This document shows, one piece after another, positions 34,463 to 49,890 of a stretch of DNA of 49,890 nt. Made by a program: the position numbers and the translations under genes. Origin of the DNA: Escherichia phage Henu8; the sequence record NC_049853.1; one strand, written 5' to 3'. Below the pieces are notes generated by a model, which saw only the letters and a list, made by a program, of their open reading frames with translations, did not search any database and was not told where the DNA came from. Positions within the stretch are counted from its first letter, which is position 1, and each line of letters opens with the position of its first letter.

Positions 34463-34915
34463 ATGCATATTATTACTGGTGAGATCCGAAAAGAGCCGCG
34501 AGTAAAGCAAATGCCTAACGGCAGCACACTTTATGTGGTTGAACTTTCAGAGCGATACAAAGATAAAGATGGAAACTGGCAATATACAAACTACAGTTTC
34601 TTTTTTAATGCCAAAACAGAAGGTCTTAATGGTTGGTATGCTGAGGCGTTCCAGGTTGGCAAGGTTATTTCTGTATCTTGCGACACGCTGCGCATTGAGA
34701 CGCGTGAATATAACGGAAAGATGTATTCAAGTTTAATGCCAGGAGGATTTGCAAATCTTATCTTCAGTCAGCGCGGGGAAAGCCAGCAACAATATCAGCA
34801 GCGAACGCAAGGAGGATGGGGCCAACCACAACAACAGAATCAACCGCAACAACCGCAACAGCCAAGACAAAGCAATCAGCCTCCTATGGACTTTGACGAC
34901 GACATTCCTTTCTGA
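34463..34915 (+). CDS. ssb: single-stranded DNA-binding protein
   Basis: 150 aa; Gln/Pro/Gly-rich linker and acidic C-terminal tail DFDDDIPF typical of bacterial and phage SSB. Confidence 0.85.
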   Translation: MHIITGEIRKEPRVKQMPNGSTLYVVELSERYKDKDGNWQYTNYSFFFNAKTEGLNGWYAEAFQVGKVISVSCDTLRIETREYNGKMYSSLMPGGFANLIFSQRGESQQQYQQRTQGGWGQPQQQNQPQQPQQPRQSNQPPMDFDDDIPF

Positions 34916-37897: not shown

Positions 37898-38830
37898 TTA
37901 GAGAATTGATTCAGGTTTGAAAACCTTCCTCTCTATCCCTTGCCTGTAATTATCATTAATCGGCATCATAATTTCAAGACCTCTTTCCTCTGCGGCAATG
38001 ATAGCGTCACGATCTGTGCTCTTACAGACAACTCGCATTCTTCTGTTGCCTTTATACCTGTAAGCCACAATCTCAATGTTAGTCGCATCAAAGCAGGCCC
38101 AAACCTCTTGACCAGTTGCAAGGTGAATATGTTGCGCATCAATCCAGTCAACGCAAAGATAGATAGTCTTATCTGTGCTTCCTGTTCTCACAACCGACCC
38201 GCGCGTGTAATCCTTAGCGAGAAAAGATTTATTTCCTTCTTCATCAATGAAAAGCACATTGCACATTTCATCATCAATCTCATCTGAGTGTACCAGGTAA
38301 CATGGCAACGCGTGAATGTATCGACCATCTTTAACGCCGCATTCATAATAACCATCTTCAGGCGGATATATCCCTTCATATGTACTTAACGGCGTGCGAT
38401 CAAATTTTAGTGTTTTTGACATAACGCGCTCGCAGCATTCATGGCTTGCCTGTTTCCCAAACGAATAACCAGAATCACGAGATACTCGCTTATTTGCCTT
38501 GATCCTATAGTCCTGAGGAACTTTTCCAAGAAAGCGGCCCAAAATATTGATCACTTCGCCGTAAGGTTCTCCGGTTAGCTTCATGATCCAACCAATTCCA
38601 GTATCGTTTCCGCACACATTGCAGATAGCGCCGCCGTCGCCTTTTTTATCTCCAAGTTTATCAGTCCATCTAAAGCGATCCTTTCCGCCGCAGTGTGGGC
38701 AAGATTGATGCTTGCCGTTAAAAACTTCATTTGGAAGACCGCAAATACTTTGTAGCGCCTCACGCCATAATCCCTGCATATATGGGAGAACATCTTCCTT
38801 TTGATAAACCATAAAGTTTTCGTTGTTCAT
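37898..38830 (-). CDS. putative DNA primase (zinc-ribbon)
   Basis: Trimmed to ATG 38830; CPHCGG...CNVCG zinc ribbon near N-terminus; position adjacent to the helicase. Confidence 0.5.
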
Positions 38831-38885
38831 ATGCACCTCAAACAAAAAAGCCTGACAGATGATAACATCATGCCAGGCATTGTTT

Positions 38886-39359
38886 TTAGCAATTAGTGCT
38901 TTCAGGTTTATACAGGAATCCGCCAGGCTCATAATCTGACATTCTTACCACTCGCAACATTTCACGCTTATCACATCTCTTTGTGAGCGGTTTGCCATTG
39001 GAATCAAATCGCAGATCTGGACGGCAGAATGACGCGCGATAGCCTTGACAGCCATACTTTTTGTAATCGTTATGCACCTTTTGAGCGCCAGCGGCTGAAA
39101 TCATACCGCGAACTCGCCACTGATTTACAGTTTGCTGGCTAACGTTAAGACGTTTTGCCATTGCTGACACACTTCCGTAATACTCAATAAGGATGTCAAG
39201 TCTCGCTTTTAGTCCGGCGCGCACTTCATCTTTTAAAACATAGTATCCAGTAGGGCGCTTGCGCTTCTTCTTATCTTTACCCCGTCGAGTTCCGTTATTG
39301 CCATTAATTGTGCGCTTGTCAATCTTGCCAGTTGATACTGCGATTCGCTGTTCTTTCAT
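38886..39359 (-). CDS. HTH DNA-binding protein
   Basis: 157 aa; GGAGA SD; helix-turn-helix-like AKRLNVSQQTVNQW; basic Lys/Arg-rich N-terminus. Confidence 0.55.
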   Translation of the reverse strand: MKEQRIAVSTGKIDKRTINGNNGTRRGKDKKKRKRPTGYYVLKDEVRAGLKARLDILIEYYGSVSAMAKRLNVSQQTVNQWRVRGMISAAGAQKVHNDYKKYGCQGYRASFCRPDLRFDSNGKPLTKRCDKREMLRVVRMSDYEPGGFLYKPESTNC

Positions 39360-39372
39360 TACTCATTCTCCA

Positions 39373-39415
39373 ATAGCATTTTTTGTTAAACGATGATTTA
39401 ATGATTGTGTATTAT
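39373..39415 (+). promoter_or_regulatory. conserved phage promoter motif + -10 (TATTAT), divergent region
   Basis: ATAGCATTTTTTGTTAAAC, 18-nt spacer, TATTAT 39410-39415. Confidence 0.5.
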
Positions 39416-39448
39416 ACACGCCAAATGGCATTACTCAAAGGTTTTAGA

Positions 39449-41488
39449 ATGATTCCAAACATTGAAAAGCAAATATCAGCACTTGGTGAAGCGGTAATTA
39501 AATCCATTCAGGAGCGATTCACTGTTGGCGATATTGTGCCTTACCCTTACCAGTGCGTTGCATACGCTGAGATCGCAAGGCGTATGAAAAATTATGAGCA
39601 TCCATTCTTTGTTAAAGCGTCCGTATCGGCTGGCAAAACATTGATGTTTGCAATGGTTGCTCACCAGTGCCGGAAAATGGGATTGAAAATGATGGTCCTT
39701 GCTCGCCAGGCTGAGATTGTGGATCAGGATTCTGAAGAGATAACAAATCTTGGAGTGCCGAACTCCATCTATTGTGCAGGACTGAAGACAAAAAGCGCAT
39801 ACTTTCCGATCGTTGTTGGTTCTGAGGGAACTGTAGTTAATGGGCTGTTTAAAGCGCTTGGCGACTATGTTCCGCACGTTATCGGTATTGACGAGTGTCA
39901 CCAGGTGGATTGGGAAGATCTTGCCGACGCAATAGAGAAAGACGAATCATTTTTACAAATGACGACGAAGAAAGGCGAAAAAGTACCAAATCCAGATTAT
40001 GACATAACGAGCGATAACGAATGCAAAGAGTTCCTGATTGGTGAGGATGGCTTGCCAATGGAGGGAACAGGCCGCACACAATACACTGTCATTATCATGG
40101 AAATGATGCGCCGCTGCCGGAAAACATATGGTCATGAACTGCGCATATTTGGAATGACTGGATCGGAGTTTCGCGGCTTAGTCCCGATCTTGGTGGAAGA
40201 CAAAAAACAGAAAGGATTCTGGCGTGAACAGGTTACTAATATTGACACCAACTACCTGATCAAATTCGGTTCTGTTGTGCCAACAAATTTTGGCGACGTT
40301 GGCGATCTAGGGTATGACCTTTCAGAGTTTGAGGCATCCAGTGAGGATGGAGTTGCAGACTTTGACGCTAAAACGCTTCGCAGGATGGAACAAAAAATTC
40401 ATGAAGAAGCTACCATGACAAAGCGCATCATGGCGAAAGTTCACGAGATCTGTAAAAAACGCAACGGCGTACTTGTGACATGTGCAGGAGAAAGGCATTG
40501 CAAAGAGGCAGCGGCATCATTGCCACCTGGAACGACTTACAGGATCATTACTGGTAAGACTGGCGACAACCAGCGCAAGGAGTGGTTGAAAGAAGCATAC
40601 GAGGGAAAGGTAAAATACATCTTCCAGGTTCAGGCGCTAACTACTGGCGTTAACGTGCCGTTTTGGGATACGTCTGTTATTCTGCGTAAGATTGGATCGC
40701 TAACTTTGCTGATTCAGCTTTTAGGACGCGGAATGCGACTTCTTAAGAAATGGCATAAGGAACAAGGATTCAAGAAAGATGATCACCTTGTTATGGATTT
40801 TTCAGGAACGATGGACGAGTTAGGTGAGCTTTATTTTGACCCGATACTGGAACAGGCGCAACATCAGAAGCGATTCAGGAACGGTAAAGATCCGAAGCCT
40901 TGTCCTGTTTGTGGAACTCTTAACAGCTATTATGCTCGTCGTTGTATGCACGTAGACGAAAACGGCAACAGATGCGAGTGGTTCTTTAAATTCAGGACAT
41001 GTGATGATCAGATTGACCCGCGCACTAAAAAGATTATTCATCGAGGCTGTGGAACTAAAAATGATATTGCGGCCAGGGTGTGCAGACATTGCGACATGTC
41101 ATTGATTGACCCTAACGAGAAGTTAAGCGGAAAGCACTACACAAAAAACGACTGGTTCCAGGTGCAATCTTTCTCGGTTGACATGACGAAAAACCAGAAA
41201 GGGATAATATTTAATTATGAGCTTTCCGATGGCATAGACACTTTCAGGGCGAGAGAGATATTTTTCCCTGAATCTGAGAGCCAAATTTGCCGCGCAAAAT
41301 GGCGAAGCGTTGCTCTTAAGCACATACCAGATCGCCGTGTTGCTGGCATGGTGGCGAGCTATCGTAATGCACGTAAAATCATGCAATATGTGAATCACAT
41401 CATGCCACCATCGCGTGTAACTCACCGCAAGACTAGCAAGGGTGAAGATAATTTGTACAAGAAGGACTTTAATTATGGCAATGACTGA
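39449..41488 (+). CDS. ATP-dependent helicase (SF2, DECH box) with C-terminal zinc-ribbon region
   Basis: Trimmed to ATG 39449; Walker A-like SVSAGKT, DECH motif, C-terminal CPVCG...C...CEW...C...C..C..CRHC cysteine cluster. Confidence 0.7.
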   Translation: MIPNIEKQISALGEAVIKSIQERFTVGDIVPYPYQCVAYAEIARRMKNYEHPFFVKASVSAGKTLMFAMVAHQCRKMGLKMMVLARQAEIVDQDSEEITNLGVPNSIYCAGLKTKSAYFPIVVGSEGTVVNGLFKALGDYVPHVIGIDECHQVDWEDLADAIEKDESFLQMTTKKGEKVPNPDYDITSDNECKEFLIGEDGLPMEGTGRTQYTVIIMEMMRRCRKTYGHELRIFGMTGSEFRGLVPILVEDKKQKGFWREQVTNIDTNYLIKFGSVVPTNFGDVGDLGYDLSEFEASSEDGVADFDAKTLRRMEQKIHEEATMTKRIMAKVHEICKKRNGVLVTCAGERHCKEAAASLPPGTTYRIITGKTGDNQRKEWLKEAYEGKVKYIFQVQALTTGVNVPFWDTSVILRKIGSLTLLIQLLGRGMRLLKKWHKEQGFKKDDHLVMDFSGTMDELGELYFDPILEQAQHQKRFRNGKDPKPCPVCGTLNSYYARRCMHVDENGNRCEWFFKFRTCDDQIDPRTKKIIHRGCGTKNDIAARVCRHCDMSLIDPNEKLSGKHYTKNDWFQVQSFSVDMTKNQKGIIFNYELSDGIDTFRAREIFFPESESQICRAKWRSVALKHIPDRRVAGMVASYRNARKIMQYVNHIMPPSRVTHRKTSKGEDNLYKKDFNYGND

Positions 41489-41968: not shown

Positions 41969-42670
41969 ATGAGTAAAGAAACTGAAGTGACATTTGAACA
42001 AATAGAACGAGAAACATTCATTGGCAATGCTCTTGCTACTGGAGGCCATTACCAGGCCGTTAAACCAAATCAATATTATAAAGTCACTGGCAACCGCTAT
42101 AACGGCAGCAATACGCCGGACGTTGTGCGAGATTTGTGGTCTACGCCGTCTGAGCTTGTCGCATGGATGGAAATCGAATACGGTGATTATGACATCGACG
42201 CGGCGGCAAGCAAAGAAAATGCTGTATGTGAAAAATTCTACAGCAAGGAAACAAATTGCTTAAAGCGTTGGTGGGGTAGTAATAAGCATATATGGCTTAA
42301 TCCACCGTACAGCAATATTACGCCATTTGTTAAGAAGGCGATTGAGCAAATGGAGCACAACAACCAGATCGACATTCTGTTACCTTGCGACACATCGACA
42401 GGATGGTTTTATGAGGCACAACAGAAAGCAGCGGAAATAATCTGGATCACTGGCGAAGTTTACCAGGAGGACGGAACAGAATATTCCCGCACCGGACGCC
42501 TGGCGTTCACTTCAGCGCTTACAGGTAAACCAGTGCAGGGTAACAATAAAGGAAGCGTTATTTTCATCATGCGCGAACTTAAAGAAGGTGAGCAGCAGAA
42601 AACGCGATACGTTAAAATCAGCGACATTTGCCCTTCAGTGGCAGATCGTCGCGCACGGAAACGGAGCTAA
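41969..42670 (+). CDS. dam: DNA N6-adenine methyltransferase (phage Dam-type)
   Basis: 233 aa; NPPY catalytic motif (WLNPPYSN). Confidence 0.75.
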   Translation: MSKETEVTFEQIERETFIGNALATGGHYQAVKPNQYYKVTGNRYNGSNTPDVVRDLWSTPSELVAWMEIEYGDYDIDAAASKENAVCEKFYSKETNCLKRWWGSNKHIWLNPPYSNITPFVKKAIEQMEHNNQIDILLPCDTSTGWFYEAQQKAAEIIWITGEVYQEDGTEYSRTGRLAFTSALTGKPVQGNNKGSVIFIMRELKEGEQQKTRYVKISDICPSVADRRARKRS

Positions 42671-43509: not shown

Positions 43510-43983
43510 ATGTGGAGTAAGATATTAAAATACGAAAATGGAATTTTAATCTGGAAGATTAAAACAAGAAAAGTGAATCCTGGAGATGTTGCTGGATGTA
43601 AAAATAGCAGGGGATATATAGTTTTTAACTATAAAGGGAAACAATATAGGGCGCACCGTGTTATTTGGCAAATTCACAACGGGGATATTCCGTCAAACAT
43701 GGAGATTGATCACATAAACCATGATAAAACTGACAACAGGATCGAAAATCTTAGGCTTGTTGATAGAACAGAAAACGGACGCAATCAGTCAAGGAGAAAT
43801 GACAATTCCAGTGGTTTTTGTGGTGTTCATTGGCACAAACCATTATCAAAATGGTGTGCAAGAATTAGGGTGAATGGTAAACTTGTGCATCTTGGATATT
43901 TTGATAAACTTGATGATGCAAAAATAGCAAGGATTGAAGCCAATAAAAAGTTTAACTTTCACGAAAATCACGGGGGAGAATAA
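43510..43983 (+). CDS. HNH homing endonuclease with AP2-like DNA-binding domain
   Basis: 157 aa; AHRVIWQIHNGDIPSNMEIDHINHDKTDNRIENLRLV (HNH core) then GVHWHKPLSKWCARIRVNGKLVHLGYFD (AP2-like); AT-rich coding sequence. Confidence 0.8.
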   Translation: MWSKILKYENGILIWKIKTRKVNPGDVAGCKNSRGYIVFNYKGKQYRAHRVIWQIHNGDIPSNMEIDHINHDKTDNRIENLRLVDRTENGRNQSRRNDNSSGFCGVHWHKPLSKWCARIRVNGKLVHLGYFDKLDDAKIARIEANKKFNFHENHGGE

Positions 43984-45953: not shown

Positions 45954-46340
45954 ATGAGAAAGTTATCAGCAATCGCGATCGCTGTTATTTTGTCTGGATG
46001 TTCAAGCGTTACGCCACTGACCGGATTGATAGGAAGCAAGCCTGAGATAACAGCACAGGCAGGAGCAGAGAACGTAAAGCAGACCGTTGGCGTTACCGCA
46101 AAGCAGGACACCAGTACAAAACAGGAAACTACAATAAAGGAATCTGCGGTTGATAAGGTGGACACGTCCAGCAAGAAGGATTTCACTACATCAACCATTC
46201 AGGCTAACACCATCAAGGCTGATAAAATCCAGGTCGTGCAAGGTAATAACGGCAGATGGTACGACCCCATAATCATATGCGTGGTTGTGCTCATTGTGCT
46301 GATTTGGCTTTACTGGAGGGAAAAGAAAAAGGAGGCTTAA
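45954..46340 (+). CDS. unimolecular spanin (lipoprotein with C-terminal TMD)
   Basis: 128 aa; lipobox ILSGC at N-terminus; C-terminal TMD PIIICVVVLIVLIWLYW plus basic tail; last gene of the lysis cassette. Confidence 0.7.
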   Translation: MRKLSAIAIAVILSGCSSVTPLTGLIGSKPEITAQAGAENVKQTVGVTAKQDTSTKQETTIKESAVDKVDTSSKKDFTTSTIQANTIKADKIQVVQGNNGRWYDPIIICVVVLIVLIWLYWREKKKEA

Positions 46341-46356
46341 CGCCTCCTTTGTTATT
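46321..46356. terminator. bidirectional terminator between lysis cassette and convergent minus-strand operon
   Basis: A-run, AGGAGGC-TTAAC-GCCTCCT hairpin, T-rich. Confidence 0.55.
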
Positions 46357-46546
46357 CAATACGCTTTACAGTAACCAACAAAACGCCGTCCTCATCACAC
46401 AAATTATGCTCTGATATATCAAACGCTCGCATGTCAGAATGAATGAGCGTTAACATTGCGTGCATGAAATCGTCATGTGAGATTGAACTTACGGCGCAGA
46501 ACTTCAATATTTTGTCTATTAGCATTTGACGTAAACAATTCTTCAT
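46352..46546 (-). CDS. hypothetical protein (start uncertain)
   Basis: ORF track; overlaps 3' end of upstream gene by 74 nt, internal ATGs possible. Confidence 0.3.
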   Translation of the reverse strand: MKNCLRQMLIDKILKFCAVSSISHDDFMHAMLTLIHSDMRAFDISEHNLCDEDGVLLVTVKRIE

Positions 46547-46865
46547 CGCTCATTTCTCCGATCCGTAAAACATCCCTTACCCATTCGTTTTGCATACCTT
46601 CAAGGCTGTAAAGTTCAAACGAGAAAGGGCGATTTGCCGATCCTTTCTTACACCAGAACTTTCCACCAACTCCATCAAGATAACCAGCGGTCATCATTCT
46701 TGCGCAAAACTCTTTTGAAACAGCAGTCGCAAACATTCTCGGCGTAAACCCTGCGGCCCTTGCGAGCCGCTCACATTCTCTATGCTGAAATATAAATTTT
46801 GCTATATGTTGACGTGTAAACCATTCGAATGACTCACACCAGCGATACAGATCCAGAAGAAACAT
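46473..46865 (-). CDS. hypothetical protein (130 aa)
   Basis: ORF 46473..46871 (GTG) trimmed to first ATG 46865; GGGGTGA SD; overlaps stop of upstream gene. Confidence 0.5.
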   Translation of the reverse strand: MFLLDLYRWCESFEWFTRQHIAKFIFQHRECERLARAAGFTPRMFATAVSKEFCARMMTAGYLDGVGGKFWCKKGSANRPFSFELYSLEGMQNEWVRDVLRIGEMSDEELFTSNANRQNIEVLRRKFNLT

Positions 46866-46867
46866 AA

Positions 46868-48451
46868 TCACCCCAACAATGTTGGATTTACGAAAACAAC
46901 GCCATTAATCACACAAATATAATTTCTTTCTTCAAGCATCGGCAGCAGTTGCGTTTCCATGCGCTTCATTACGCCAGCCTGACCAACAAACGGCTTAACT
47001 TTTCGTGCTGCCTCATATATGGCGCGCACATTCAAGATTCCCTTATTAGCCTTGCCGTGTCGAGTGATGATCTCGATTAGTTTACCCATTTCAGCATCAT
47101 CACCAGCGTAGCCAGAAGCGTTGGCGGCGCTAATGTATGTTTTGCTCAACTCGCTAAACATCAGTAATGCTTCCTGAACGGTTTCAACTTCAATCTCTTT
47201 CGACTTCTGAGGGTATCCGCCAGGATTAAACCAGTTGCGGATAGTGTGCAAAACTGAAGCAATCCTGATCACCTGCTTATCCATTTTGCCAAGCGCGCCG
47301 CGCAGCATTGTATGCGAATACTTTCCTCCATCGGCAAGGTGCGGCTCCATCTCCTGACGAGCCATGTTAAGCACTCGCATTGCTGATTTGCTGATCTTAA
47401 GCTGGATGTTTGATTCGCTCATGATGTTATGGATCAGCTTAAAATATTGACTTTTCAGTTCTCCATCAACAGGCTCATAAGTCGAATCACCGTTATCATC
47501 AACAAACTTTCTACGGCCTAAAAATGATTCCTCACGTACAAGCAAATAACGCTCACTTACACCGATACCGCGCGATCCTGCATCCATGATGGCATTGATT
47601 GTTTCATCCTGGGCAATTACGGCCATACAGCCAAGAGCTTTAAAACTCATATTGTTGTCAGCGTTTGCACGAGCTATAGAAACATGACCATGATCCCATG
47701 CTTTTAGCACAAGTTCGCTGTTGGTTTTACGTTCGCTATTGGCATATGTCAGACCTAAAAGGCTGTTAATACTCGTTGCCTCGTCTGAAATTACAGCAAA
47801 GTTTCCCTGGCGGTTGTTGATTCTTGCAAGTCCTTCCGGCGTTGTGTCTGAGACAGGGAAAACAATGTCACACATCTTTTCCAGCTTTTCTTCCAGATCT
47901 TCTTTCTCCTGGTACAGAGATTCCATATCAGCTCCGGAACGCTCGCTTTTCATTTCCTTTGCAAGACCTGCCAACTTTGCCTGAATCTTTTTTCGTTCCT
48001 TCTTTCGCTGATCATTAATTCTTTCCACCTCAGCAACCATAGGAGCAAGTGCCAGGCTGTTAACGGCAGATTTACCAGTTGAAGGAGGCTGACTTGTAAC
48101 AACATAAAGAGCGGTCGGCTGATCCGTTCCGTGATACTCAACAGTGAAGCGTCCAAGCATTGCAGCAGACACGCAGCCGATAAAATGCATATATGCCGAT
48201 GATTCAGGGAACTGAACTGATCGAGCAATGTTGCGCGCCAACTTTCCAACAACATCAACATCATTGCCAAGAGAAATTACAGGGTAGCGATCGTTTCCGT
48301 TATTAACATCATTAACCTCACCCCAAAAGCTGGACGATTGACGGTATCCGTTTGCCTGAATGGACACGCGCACCGGAGACAATCCTTGTGCATCAGCTAA
48401 TTCGATAATTTGTTTTGGTGTTAGTTTATTGGTTTCAAACGAAAAATTCAT
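46868..48451 (-). CDS. large early P-loop protein (527 aa, function unknown)
   Basis: Trimmed to ATG 48451 (AAGGAG SD, 9-nt spacer); Walker A-like TSQPPSTGKS; Lys/Glu-rich coiled-coil segment. Confidence 0.6.
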   Translation of the reverse strand: MNFSFETNKLTPKQIIELADAQGLSPVRVSIQANGYRQSSSFWGEVNDVNNGNDRYPVISLGNDVDVVGKLARNIARSVQFPESSAYMHFIGCVSAAMLGRFTVEYHGTDQPTALYVVTSQPPSTGKSAVNSLALAPMVAEVERINDQRKKERKKIQAKLAGLAKEMKSERSGADMESLYQEKEDLEEKLEKMCDIVFPVSDTTPEGLARINNRQGNFAVISDEATSINSLLGLTYANSERKTNSELVLKAWDHGHVSIARANADNNMSFKALGCMAVIAQDETINAIMDAGSRGIGVSERYLLVREESFLGRRKFVDDNGDSTYEPVDGELKSQYFKLIHNIMSESNIQLKISKSAMRVLNMARQEMEPHLADGGKYSHTMLRGALGKMDKQVIRIASVLHTIRNWFNPGGYPQKSKEIEVETVQEALLMFSELSKTYISAANASGYAGDDAEMGKLIEIITRHGKANKGILNVRAIYEAARKVKPFVGQAGVMKRMETQLLPMLEERNYICVINGVVFVNPTLLG

Positions 48452-48480
48452 TGATGATAACTCCTTTTTTTGATGCGGCA

Positions 48481-48525
48481 ATAATACCGCACCAATGCTA
48501 CCCGCATTTAACAAAAAATGCTATT
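48481..48525 (-). promoter_or_regulatory. conserved phage promoter motif + -10 (TATTAT)
   Basis: Minus-strand AAATAGCATTTTTTGTTAAA with stop TAG of gene 48521..48742 embedded; TATTAT about 20 nt downstream. Confidence 0.45.
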
Positions 48526-48742
48526 TGATCCGCTCTATGCTAACTAAGATTTTTTCTGGTTCCCTTGCGCTATTGCAATGCGCGGTTACAGAATCAGCAA
48601 AATCAAAGTAAAGTGATTTGTGATATGATAATCCAATCAGCCACCCAACCATTGTTTTCTTTATTGGCCTGACTATATCGCCAGGCTTGAAGGTTTTTGT
48701 TGCCGAATGAGTCACCTTATAGCGATATTCAGCCTTGATCAC
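48521..48742 (-). CDS. hypothetical protein (73 aa, GTG start)
   Basis: ORF track; GTG overlapping TGA of upstream gene; GAGG 10 nt upstream. Confidence 0.45.
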   Translation of the reverse strand: MIKAEYRYKVTHSATKTFKPGDIVRPIKKTMVGWLIGLSYHKSLYFDFADSVTAHCNSAREPEKILVSIERIK

Positions 48743-49125
48743 TTATACATAGCCTCAAACAAATGACAGCCACCAGCGGAAAATCCAACTTCTTCGCGGT
48801 ATAGCGTCCAGCGGTCGCCAGCTTCATCAAACACATAACCAGCAACAGCGCCAAGCGCGCGGCCTTGCTCAATCTGGTAGCGCTTTCCTTCTTTGAAATG
48901 CTTTTTACACGGGATCTTGTGATCTACAAAGGTGCATTTAATTGTTTTTGTCTTGATATGACGATAGTCAGATTCAACAGCGTTTTGCCACTTGCTACCC
49001 TTTGTAATGCTCTTTACCTGGAATTGTTCCAACTCGATCACATCATCGCTACCAGCAATTTTTTCGTATACAGCTTTATAACGACAGTTCATCAAAACGT
49101 TGGTTTTATTGCAGATAACTTTCAT
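48739..49125 (-). CDS. hypothetical protein (128 aa)
   Basis: ORF track; AAGGAG SD; preceded by promoter motif. Confidence 0.55.
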   Translation of the reverse strand: MKVICNKTNVLMNCRYKAVYEKIAGSDDVIELEQFQVKSITKGSKWQNAVESDYRHIKTKTIKCTFVDHKIPCKKHFKEGKRYQIEQGRALGAVAGYVFDEAGDRWTLYREEVGFSAGGCHLFEAMYK

Positions 49126-49156
49126 CGTTTATTTCTCCTTTCGTTTCGGTGAAGTG

Positions 49157-49200
49157 ATTATGCCAGGCTTTTACACCTGGCTTTTAACAAAAAGTGCTAT
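49157..49200 (-). promoter_or_regulatory. conserved phage promoter motif + -10 (CATAAT)
   Basis: Minus-strand AAATAGCACTTTTTGTTAAAAG with stop TAG embedded; 18-nt spacer with GCCAGG..CCTGGC inverted repeat; CATAAT. Confidence 0.55.
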
Positions 49201-49890
49201 TTTGCGTTTGCTTCAAAGACGGCGCGAGCAAAACCGCGCGGTGTGAGGGAGCGGATCATCTTTGTGCGAGATGATTTTCCGCCAGTTTTGACCCAACCAG
49301 GATTATCCTTGTTGTCCTCTTTCGGAAGGATTGTTGCGCGCGGAGGAATAACAAATCCGTTTCCAGTCCAAAGGCATGTTTTCTTAAAGTACCGATCCCG
49401 CGCCGGAATAATATCAGGAAAGTCGGGATGTTTATCATCTTCCGACAGATAGCCAGCATAATCGCACGGATGGAACGTATAATCAGGCTTGCGCCATAGC
49501 GTTGACAGCTTGCCTACAGGATTCTCTATCATGTACGGAACACCGAAATAATCAGCAATTTGCGCAGCAATTTTGCAAGTGTCGGCGGCCTCATCCTGGA
49601 ACGCTGGATTCTCAAGGCGTTTTTTGGTCCAATGGCGAGATCCGCTATTTGCAAGGTCAGTGCACGGCGGAAATGCCATAATGAAATCAGGCTTGCCCCA
49701 ATTTTCAAGTTTTGCGGTATATTTGAATAGCTCATCAATCCACACATTAACGTAAAAAATATTATCATGGATTATGCGCACTGACTGGTAATCACCGTGA
49801 TCGCCACCGTCAGAATTAAAGCAAATGCATTTATATCCAGCATCAGCCCAATCTTTAACGGCTTTACCAGATCCATCAAACAAAGAGAAT
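49197..49890 (-). CDS. DNA methyltransferase-like protein (C5-cytosine MTase-like PC and ENV-like motifs), partial, N-terminus beyond window end
   Basis: Open to window edge; FPPCTDLANSG (PC motif-like) and MIENPVG (ENV-like) about 45 aa apart. Confidence 0.4.
   Translation of the reverse strand, partial: FSLFDGSGKAVKDWADAGYKCICFNSDGGDHGDYQSVRIIHDNIFYVNVWIDELFKYTAKLENWGKPDFIMAFPPCTDLANSGSRHWTKKRLENPAFQDEAADTCKIAAQIADYFGVPYMIENPVGKLSTLWRKPDYTFHPCDYAGYLSEDDKHPDFPDIIPARDRYFKKTCLWTGNGFVIPPRATILPKEDNKDNPGWVKTGGKSSRTKMIRSLTPRGFARAVFEANAK

Follow-up and report, generated by a model that had tools for sequence, protein, structure and literature searches.

Genomic context of the gene

The window analyzed here is the whole 49,890-nt sequence of Escherichia phage Henu8 (NC_049853.1), the genome of a T1-like coliphage (Drexlerviridae, Tempevirinae, Hanrivervirus), of which a 24-kb stretch shares 97.3% identity with phages JLBYU09 and JLBYU41. 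The features of this genome that bear on the gene studied here are as follows:

34463..34915: SSB
37898..38932, minus strand: stand-alone T7/DnaG-type primase (Pfam Zn_Ribbon_Prim, E = 2e-12)
39383..41488: SF2 helicase, divergent from the primase
46328..46350, minus strand: intrinsic terminator closing the leftward operon (9-bp stem, 5-nt loop, T-run)
46473..46871, minus strand: 130/132-aa ORF downstream of the DUF3987 gene (ATG at 46865 or GTG at 46871)
46868..48451, minus strand: putative helicase gene of the DUF3987 family (AAA+, SF6, MCM-like; 527 aa plus stop codon)
49197..49883, minus strand: methyltransferase-like gene (PHROG 757)

The longest form of the DUF3987 gene in the ORF list spans 46868..48514 (minus strand) and would give 548 aa from a TTG start, and the ATG at 48451 gives a 527-aa protein. 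Because this ATG has an AAGGAG Shine-Dalgarno sequence 9 nt upstream and the homologs are 520-531 aa long, 46868..48451 was taken as the correct gene, and the 527-aa minus-strand protein proposed in the initial annotation was thus confirmed by the ORF list, start codon, ribosome-binding site, and homolog lengths. The gene is 97.2% identical at the DNA level to its counterpart in phage aalborv, from which it differs by 43 synonymous changes and 1 non-synonymous change; the resulting dN/dS of 0.006 indicates a real gene and no chance ORF. We conclude that it is a functional core gene of T1-like phages under very strong purifying selection.

The same annotation had placed this gene, as the largest, in a leftward operon with the methyltransferase-like gene and several small proteins, and the ORF list and PHROG matches agree. 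In this leftward string, the gene is preceded by ORFs of 128 and 73 aa and followed by ORFs of 130/132 and 64 aa, and the terminator (46350..46328) faces the end of the convergent spanin gene. The stop codon of the DUF3987 gene overlaps or abuts the start of the 130/132-aa ORF (TGATTATG), which belongs to PHROG 2794, is 76% identical to SECphi27 gp10, and was found in T1-like phages only; the RefSeq record of aalborv does not annotate it, and other phages list it as 'YdbL'. Its product has a predicted winged-helix-like fold and, speculatively, may be a DNA-binding partner or regulator. Plesiomonas phage phiP4-7 has an ORF of about 130 aa as well, but no similarity between it and the 132-aa ORF of Henu8 was found, so the pairing of the putative helicase with a small protein is not demonstrably conserved beyond Drexlerviridae. 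Similarly positioned in SECphi27 is the counterpart of another small ORF, the 128-aa ORF at 48739..49125 (minus strand; PHROG 2684) two genes upstream of the DUF3987 gene, which shares 74% identity with SECphi27 gp13, also of 128 aa.

Henu8 carries two DNA methyltransferase-like genes, one of the Pfam Dam family (41969..42670, plus strand) and the one in the leftward operon (49197..49883, minus strand), which matched PHROG 757 'DNA methyltransferase' and gave no Pfam match at E <= 0.01. A search for iterons, palindromes, and origin-like repeats across 46000-49890 returned only short two-copy chance repeats, and a promoter scan found fewer sites than in shuffled sequence.

Assignment to the DUF3987 family

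Profile searches placed the protein in Pfam family DUF3987 (PF13148) with a score of 149.6 bits (E = 1.8e-43; gathering cut-off 27 bits), residues 82-431 aligning to profile positions 3-350 of 364, and the same match was found in all 32 aligned relatives. An end-to-end match was obtained to PHROG 2373 'DNA helicase' (E ~1e-245), and the C-terminus also matched PHROG 7327. The motifs that characterize the family were found as GKS at residues 126-128 and DE at residues 223-224. The profile score, these motifs, and the C-terminal winged helix described below all fit, and the 527-aa protein is a DUF3987 member. The initial reading of the gene was therefore right in part: a P-loop protein with a coiled-coil-like segment, largest in its operon, was correctly described, and its supposed lack of a family and of a known function gave way to full-length membership of DUF3987 and PHROG 2373 'DNA helicase'. 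An outcome named in advance as evidence against that reading, namely that profile searches would reveal a known family with an ordinary role in replication, is essentially what we obtained, although DUF3987 itself is only lightly characterized.

Other searches were uninformative. NCBIfam returned nothing meaningful for the 527-aa protein, Pfam MCM (PF00493) gave no match at E <= 1, and searches of PDB sequences, with the single protein or with a 32-sequence profile, returned chance coiled-coil matches only, with no MCM and no relative; no solved structure of the DUF3987 family was detectable among PDB sequences. Since these PDB sequence searches gave chance matches only, the link to MCM proteins drawn below rests on fold comparison and the literature. 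An origin in a defence system was rejected, as PADLOC gave only a compositional match to a JetC coiled coil.

Predicted structure and conserved motifs

An AlphaFold2 model was built from the 32-sequence alignment (33-99% identity) and was confident (mean pLDDT 88.6, pTM 0.86). The following elements were recognized in the model and in the sequence (all on the minus strand):

Residues 1-80 (48212..48451): small helical N-terminal domain (helices 12-22, 26-34, 37-42, and 67-79)
Residues ~83-410: predicted AAA+ core
Residues 119-128 (48068..48097): Walker A/P-loop TSQPPSTGKS, from the sequence and alignment
Residues 127-192 (47876..48073): Lys/Glu-rich helical hairpin growing from the Walker A helix
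Residues 218-224 (47780..47800): Walker B strand FAVISDE (strand 218-222, followed by D223 and E224)
Residues 256-271 (47639..47686): beta-hairpin before sensor 1, with R261 (strands 256-259 and 268-271)
Residues 278-283 (47603..47620): sensor-1 region VIAQDE, at the end of strand 274-280
Residues 297-303 (47543..47563): GVSERYL with putative arginine finger R301, just before strand 302-306
Residues 383-392 (47276..47305): lid/sensor-2 region LRGALGKMDK (helices 381-388 and 390-406)
Residues 422-446: long connecting helix
Residues ~450-527 (46871..47104): predicted C-terminal winged-helix domain

The Walker A-like TSQPPSTGKS noted earlier is thus present, and the description as a P-loop ATPase holds; within it, Q121, P122, G126, K127, and S128 are invariant in the alignment. 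To quantify conservation more broadly, 146 family representatives were aligned with hmmalign and the 136 that are near full length were counted. K127 of Walker A, the Walker B glutamate E224, R261 of the beta-hairpin, G297 and R301 of GVSER(Y/F), and K389 of the lid were each present in 136/136 relatives, Q281 at the sensor-1 position in 135/136, and R384 of the lid in 97/136. The motifs run in the order Walker A, Walker B, hairpin, sensor 1, arginine finger, and lid, an order and spacing that we take to parallel the MCM layout, and the SER(F/Y) motif resembles the MCM arginine finger SRFD. VIAQDE (278-283) was considered as Walker B and rejected, because MCM spacing and strand order require ISDE (221-224) as Walker B and Q281 as sensor 1. 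By position in the MCM motif order, we infer that the beta-hairpin at 256-271 would contact DNA in the central channel as the equivalent of the MCM pre-sensor-1 hairpin; R301 would, judging by position only, act in trans as the arginine finger.

The Walker B aspartate varies across the family, being Asp in 50 of the 136 relatives, Ala in 48, and Ser in 30, with Henu8 carrying the canonical DE. Replacement by Ala or Ser, found in 78/136 (57%) with the next glutamate invariant, is unusual for AAA+ ATPases.

What had been noted as a Lys/Glu-rich coiled-coil segment (residues ~140-195) corresponds to a predicted long helical hairpin with helices at 127-169 and 173-192 (pLDDT 85-96). Because the spacing between Walker A and Walker B has a median of 93 residues among 146 relatives and the Pfam profile spans the hairpin unbroken, this element is a hallmark of the family and no peculiarity of Henu8. 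The N-terminal residues 1-80, by comparison, lie outside the Pfam match (82-431) and are occupied by other modules in relatives.

Distribution and existing annotation

By tblastn, homologs were detected in 919 phage records, with a near full-length copy in 898; the records include those of Tls ('yfiJ: putative ATPase') and Rtp (rtp67, 'conserved protein'). The 527-aa protein is 100% identical to a 'putative helicase' of phage egaa and 99% identical to a 'DNA helicase' of phage herni. An exhaustive profile search collected 6,016 representatives (at 50% identity) at E <= 1e-3, of which 406 at E <= 1e-30; a second word-indexed profile search recovered the same 167 clusters as the first, the distant relatives coming from the exhaustive search only. 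The DUF3987 family is therefore large.

More than 20 GenBank records within MG065640-MG065688, named 'Campylobacter phage' (host Campylobacter jejuni), carry the gene; it is about 96.5% identical in DNA to that of the E. coli phage, and the protein reaches 99.8% identity. These records resemble T1-like coliphage genomes, so their host label is probably erroneous or stems from contamination.

Labels for the gene differ among T1-like records, ranging over 'hypothetical protein', 'DUF3987', 'putative ATPase', 'DNA replication protein', and 'DNA helicase', and in papers on T1-like phages the name 'the helicase' is usually given to the SF2 protein next to the primase alone. The gene is already catalogued and annotated, and for its family a functional prediction has been published and validated biochemically in one case. 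The main value of our finding is annotation, and it does not represent a new kind of system. As a predicted ring helicase with an MCM fold, the DUF3987 protein is a concrete candidate for the replicative helicase in the T1 group, where replication is poorly understood; it also provides a bacterial-virus model, easy to purify, for a family that lacks a solved structure.

Association with primases and other replication genes

The Henu8 primase (37898..38932) matched PHROG 510 'DNA primase' at profile positions 3-316 of 667 only, and since this is just the N-terminal half of the profile, it has no fused helicase half. Further replication and recombination genes of the phage encode a VRR-NUC-like nuclease, Dam, a RecE-like exonuclease, Erf, SSB, and a phosphoesterase; no DNA polymerase gene was found in the phage genome by Pfam and PHROG scans, and no separate initiator or helicase-loader gene was recognized among the genes scanned. 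Directly upstream of the phosphoesterase/DNA-repair exonuclease gene lies a homing endonuclease-like ORF with HNH_3 and AP2 domains (43510..43983, plus strand).

In Henu8 the DUF3987 gene lies about 8 kb from the primase, past the lysis cassette and in a separate leftward transcription unit. Its homologs in phiP4-7 (33% identity) and Klebsiella phage GP-1 (36%) adjoin a primase/SF2 helicase/exonuclease/SSB module at a distance of 0.2-1.4 kb. Among the long relatives recovered by the exhaustive search, one carries an N-terminal DnaG-type CHC2 zinc ribbon (P0274) and another a BT4734-type AEP domain (P0350). A third relative of 666 aa (P0307) joins a DnaB N-terminal domain (PF00772, E = 2e-22) to a DUF3987 motor, with no RecA-like DnaB C-terminal domain, and from its domain matches it appears to be a natural chimera of an SF4 N-terminus and an SF6 motor. 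As it combines these two parts, P0307 gives a direct hint that a DUF3987 module can replace the DnaB motor at the fork.

These associations agree with published work. Kazlauskas et al. (2016; PMC4889955) described the DUF3987 proteins of phages as divergent helicases of SF6 that are related to MCM, carry a winged helix at the C-terminus, and are often fused to or encoded beside AEP or DnaG primases, and proposed them as replicative helicases; they also reported that dns of phage N4 is a DUF3987-AEP fusion essential for replication. The same prediction for DUF3987 was made in a 2018 survey of AEPs (PMC5862659). In a 2025 study (PMC11724360), AgaPH, a PriCT-DUF3987 protein of Seonamhaeicola sp. 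S2-3, was purified; it eluted as an oligomer, bound its primase-polymerase, and unwound 5'-overhang and forked DNA, indicating 5'-3' polarity, and it is the only DUF3987 member for which ATP-dependent 5'-3' unwinding has been shown. Among T1-like phages, a re-annotation of TLS (PMC11447400) named only the SF2 protein adjoining the primase as a helicase and reported T1 and TLS to be without a DNA polymerase. Our literature search found no paper assaying a T1-like DUF3987 protein, and a search on T1 genetics (replication mutants, requirements for host dna genes, and MCM-like proteins) returned nothing among the papers searched.

Proposed function and alternative explanations

We consider it very probable that the DUF3987 protein is some kind of helicase or translocase. 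Our preferred reading, to which we give a rough probability of 0.6, is that it is a ring-forming AAA+ replicative fork helicase with an MCM fold that operates with the phage primase, SSB, and host DNA polymerase III. The computed basis for this is family membership, the MCM-like fold, the catalytic residues, purifying selection, and primase linkage or fusion in relatives; from it we infer ring assembly, polarity, cooperation with the primase and Pol III, and the part that the protein plays in Henu8 replication. Mechanistically, the protein would assemble into a ring, most likely a hexamer, in which ATP would be bound at the Walker A lysine K127, hydrolyzed with the Walker B glutamate E224, and sensed by Q281 together with the arginine finger R301 of the neighbouring subunit. 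Hydrolysis would then drive the R261 beta-hairpin along single-stranded DNA in the central channel. The helicase would work with the separate T7/DnaG-type primase, its presumed partner, and the phage SSB, and primed templates would be handed to host DNA polymerase III, since no polymerase is encoded by the phage itself. By analogy with AgaPH, the only assayed family member, the polarity is probably 5'-3', an uncertain extrapolation because AgaPH is distant and runs opposite to MCM. The charged helical hairpin and the C-terminal winged helix are probably elements for docking proteins or DNA. A further elaboration, possible if on the doubtful side, is a chimeric replisome combining an MCM-fold ring of archaeal/eukaryotic type with reversed 5'-3' polarity, a zinc-ribbon/Toprim primase of bacterial type, and captured host Pol III, in which the hairpin or the N-terminus would dock in place of the tau and DnaG contacts of DnaB and the 130-aa protein would serve as an origin or loading factor.

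Several observations speak against a fork helicase, namely the location of the gene roughly 8 kb away from the primase, in another operon that it shares with a methyltransferase and small ORFs, the absence of the MCM N-terminal OB/zinc collar, and the absence of origin-like iterons near the gene. The SF2 helicase (39383..41488) could drive the fork instead, as it is divergently paired with the primase and is usually called 'the helicase' (PMC11447400). Were the fork driven by the SF2 helicase or host DnaB, the DUF3987 ring might serve recombination-dependent replication, branch migration, or the processing of concatemers, similar to ComM or MCM8/9, with the RecE-like exonuclease, Erf, and the VRR-NUC-like nuclease as partners. 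We regard this as unlikely, since DUF3987 fusions to primases and to the primase-binding N-terminal domain of DnaB point to unwinding coupled to priming, as do the published primase-helicase interaction (PMC11724360) and the need for N4 dns in replication (PMC4889955), and since replicative MCMs outscored ComM in the fold comparison.

An initiator-helicase overlaps with the replicative helicase reading and, taken separately, seems to us improbable. Here the winged helix, with or without the 130-aa protein, would recognize the origin, and the AAA+ ring would melt it and load itself, as in SF3 or the Rep proteins of SaPI and P4. The C-terminal winged helix, the translationally coupled small winged-helix protein downstream, the structural neighbours SaPI5 primase-helicase and SCCmec Cch, and the failure to recognize an initiator or loader gene among those scanned would all suit such a role, but no iterons or AT-rich origin-like repeats were seen in or beside the gene, no origin repeats were reported in TLS (PMC11447400), and winged helices of the MCM family often make protein contacts and not sequence-specific ones with DNA. 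We consider it very improbable that the protein is an AAA+ ATPase other than a helicase, such as a remodeller of the MoxR/RavA type or a factor for host takeover or anti-defence, expressed with the methyltransferase in a putative early operon. The gene was not implicated in an Avs/STAND paper (PMC13581612) or in an escape-mutant preprint (10.1101/2022.08.27.505566).

Comparison with known systems

The closest known systems are the DUF3987 helicases themselves, including AgaPH, N4 dns, and the SF6 protein of Mycobacterium phage Corndog, whose family profile is matched over its full length. For the Corndog protein, a profile-profile match to Pfam MCM (PF00493) with a probability above 95% has been reported. 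With these helicases the Henu8 protein shares Walker A, the Walker B glutamate, the putative arginine finger, the helical insert past Walker A, the C-terminal winged helix, and occurrence in a phage or mobile element that also encodes a primase. Unlike AgaPH and N4 dns, it has no fused PriCT or primase domain and carries a helical N-terminus of about 80 aa instead, and unlike relatives with an adjacent AEP, its primase is of the T7/DnaG type and lies about 8 kb away; helicase function is here a prediction.

In the fold comparison of the AlphaFold2 model, the nearest structures to the AAA+ core, of the pre-sensor-II-insert clade, were MCM proteins, with replicative MCMs ranking above ComM. Sequence identity to archaeal MCM, MCM2-7, and MCM8/9 is only about 12-15%. 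Where MCM has an N-terminal OB-fold/zinc collar, the Henu8 protein has an all-helical domain of about 80 residues, and in relatives this place (residues 1-80) is taken by a primase, PriCT, or DnaB_N domain. A helical hairpin insert of about 40 residues between Walker A and Walker B is absent in MCM, and MCM runs 3'-5' whereas AgaPH, the one assayed DUF3987 member, runs 5'-3'. Lacking the OB/zinc collar, the Henu8 protein is, as modelled, MCM-like in its motor fold and not an MCM orthologue. SCCmec Cch (DUF927) and the SaPI5 primase-helicase Rep belong to other Pfam families, and their structural matches were far weaker than those of MCM. Lastly, T7 gp4 and DnaB (SF4) have a RecA-like motor where that of the Henu8 protein is AAA+, and the latter has no fused primase, yet the proposed job would be the same, that of a ring helicase that cooperates with a zinc-ribbon/Toprim primase and probably moves 5'-3'.
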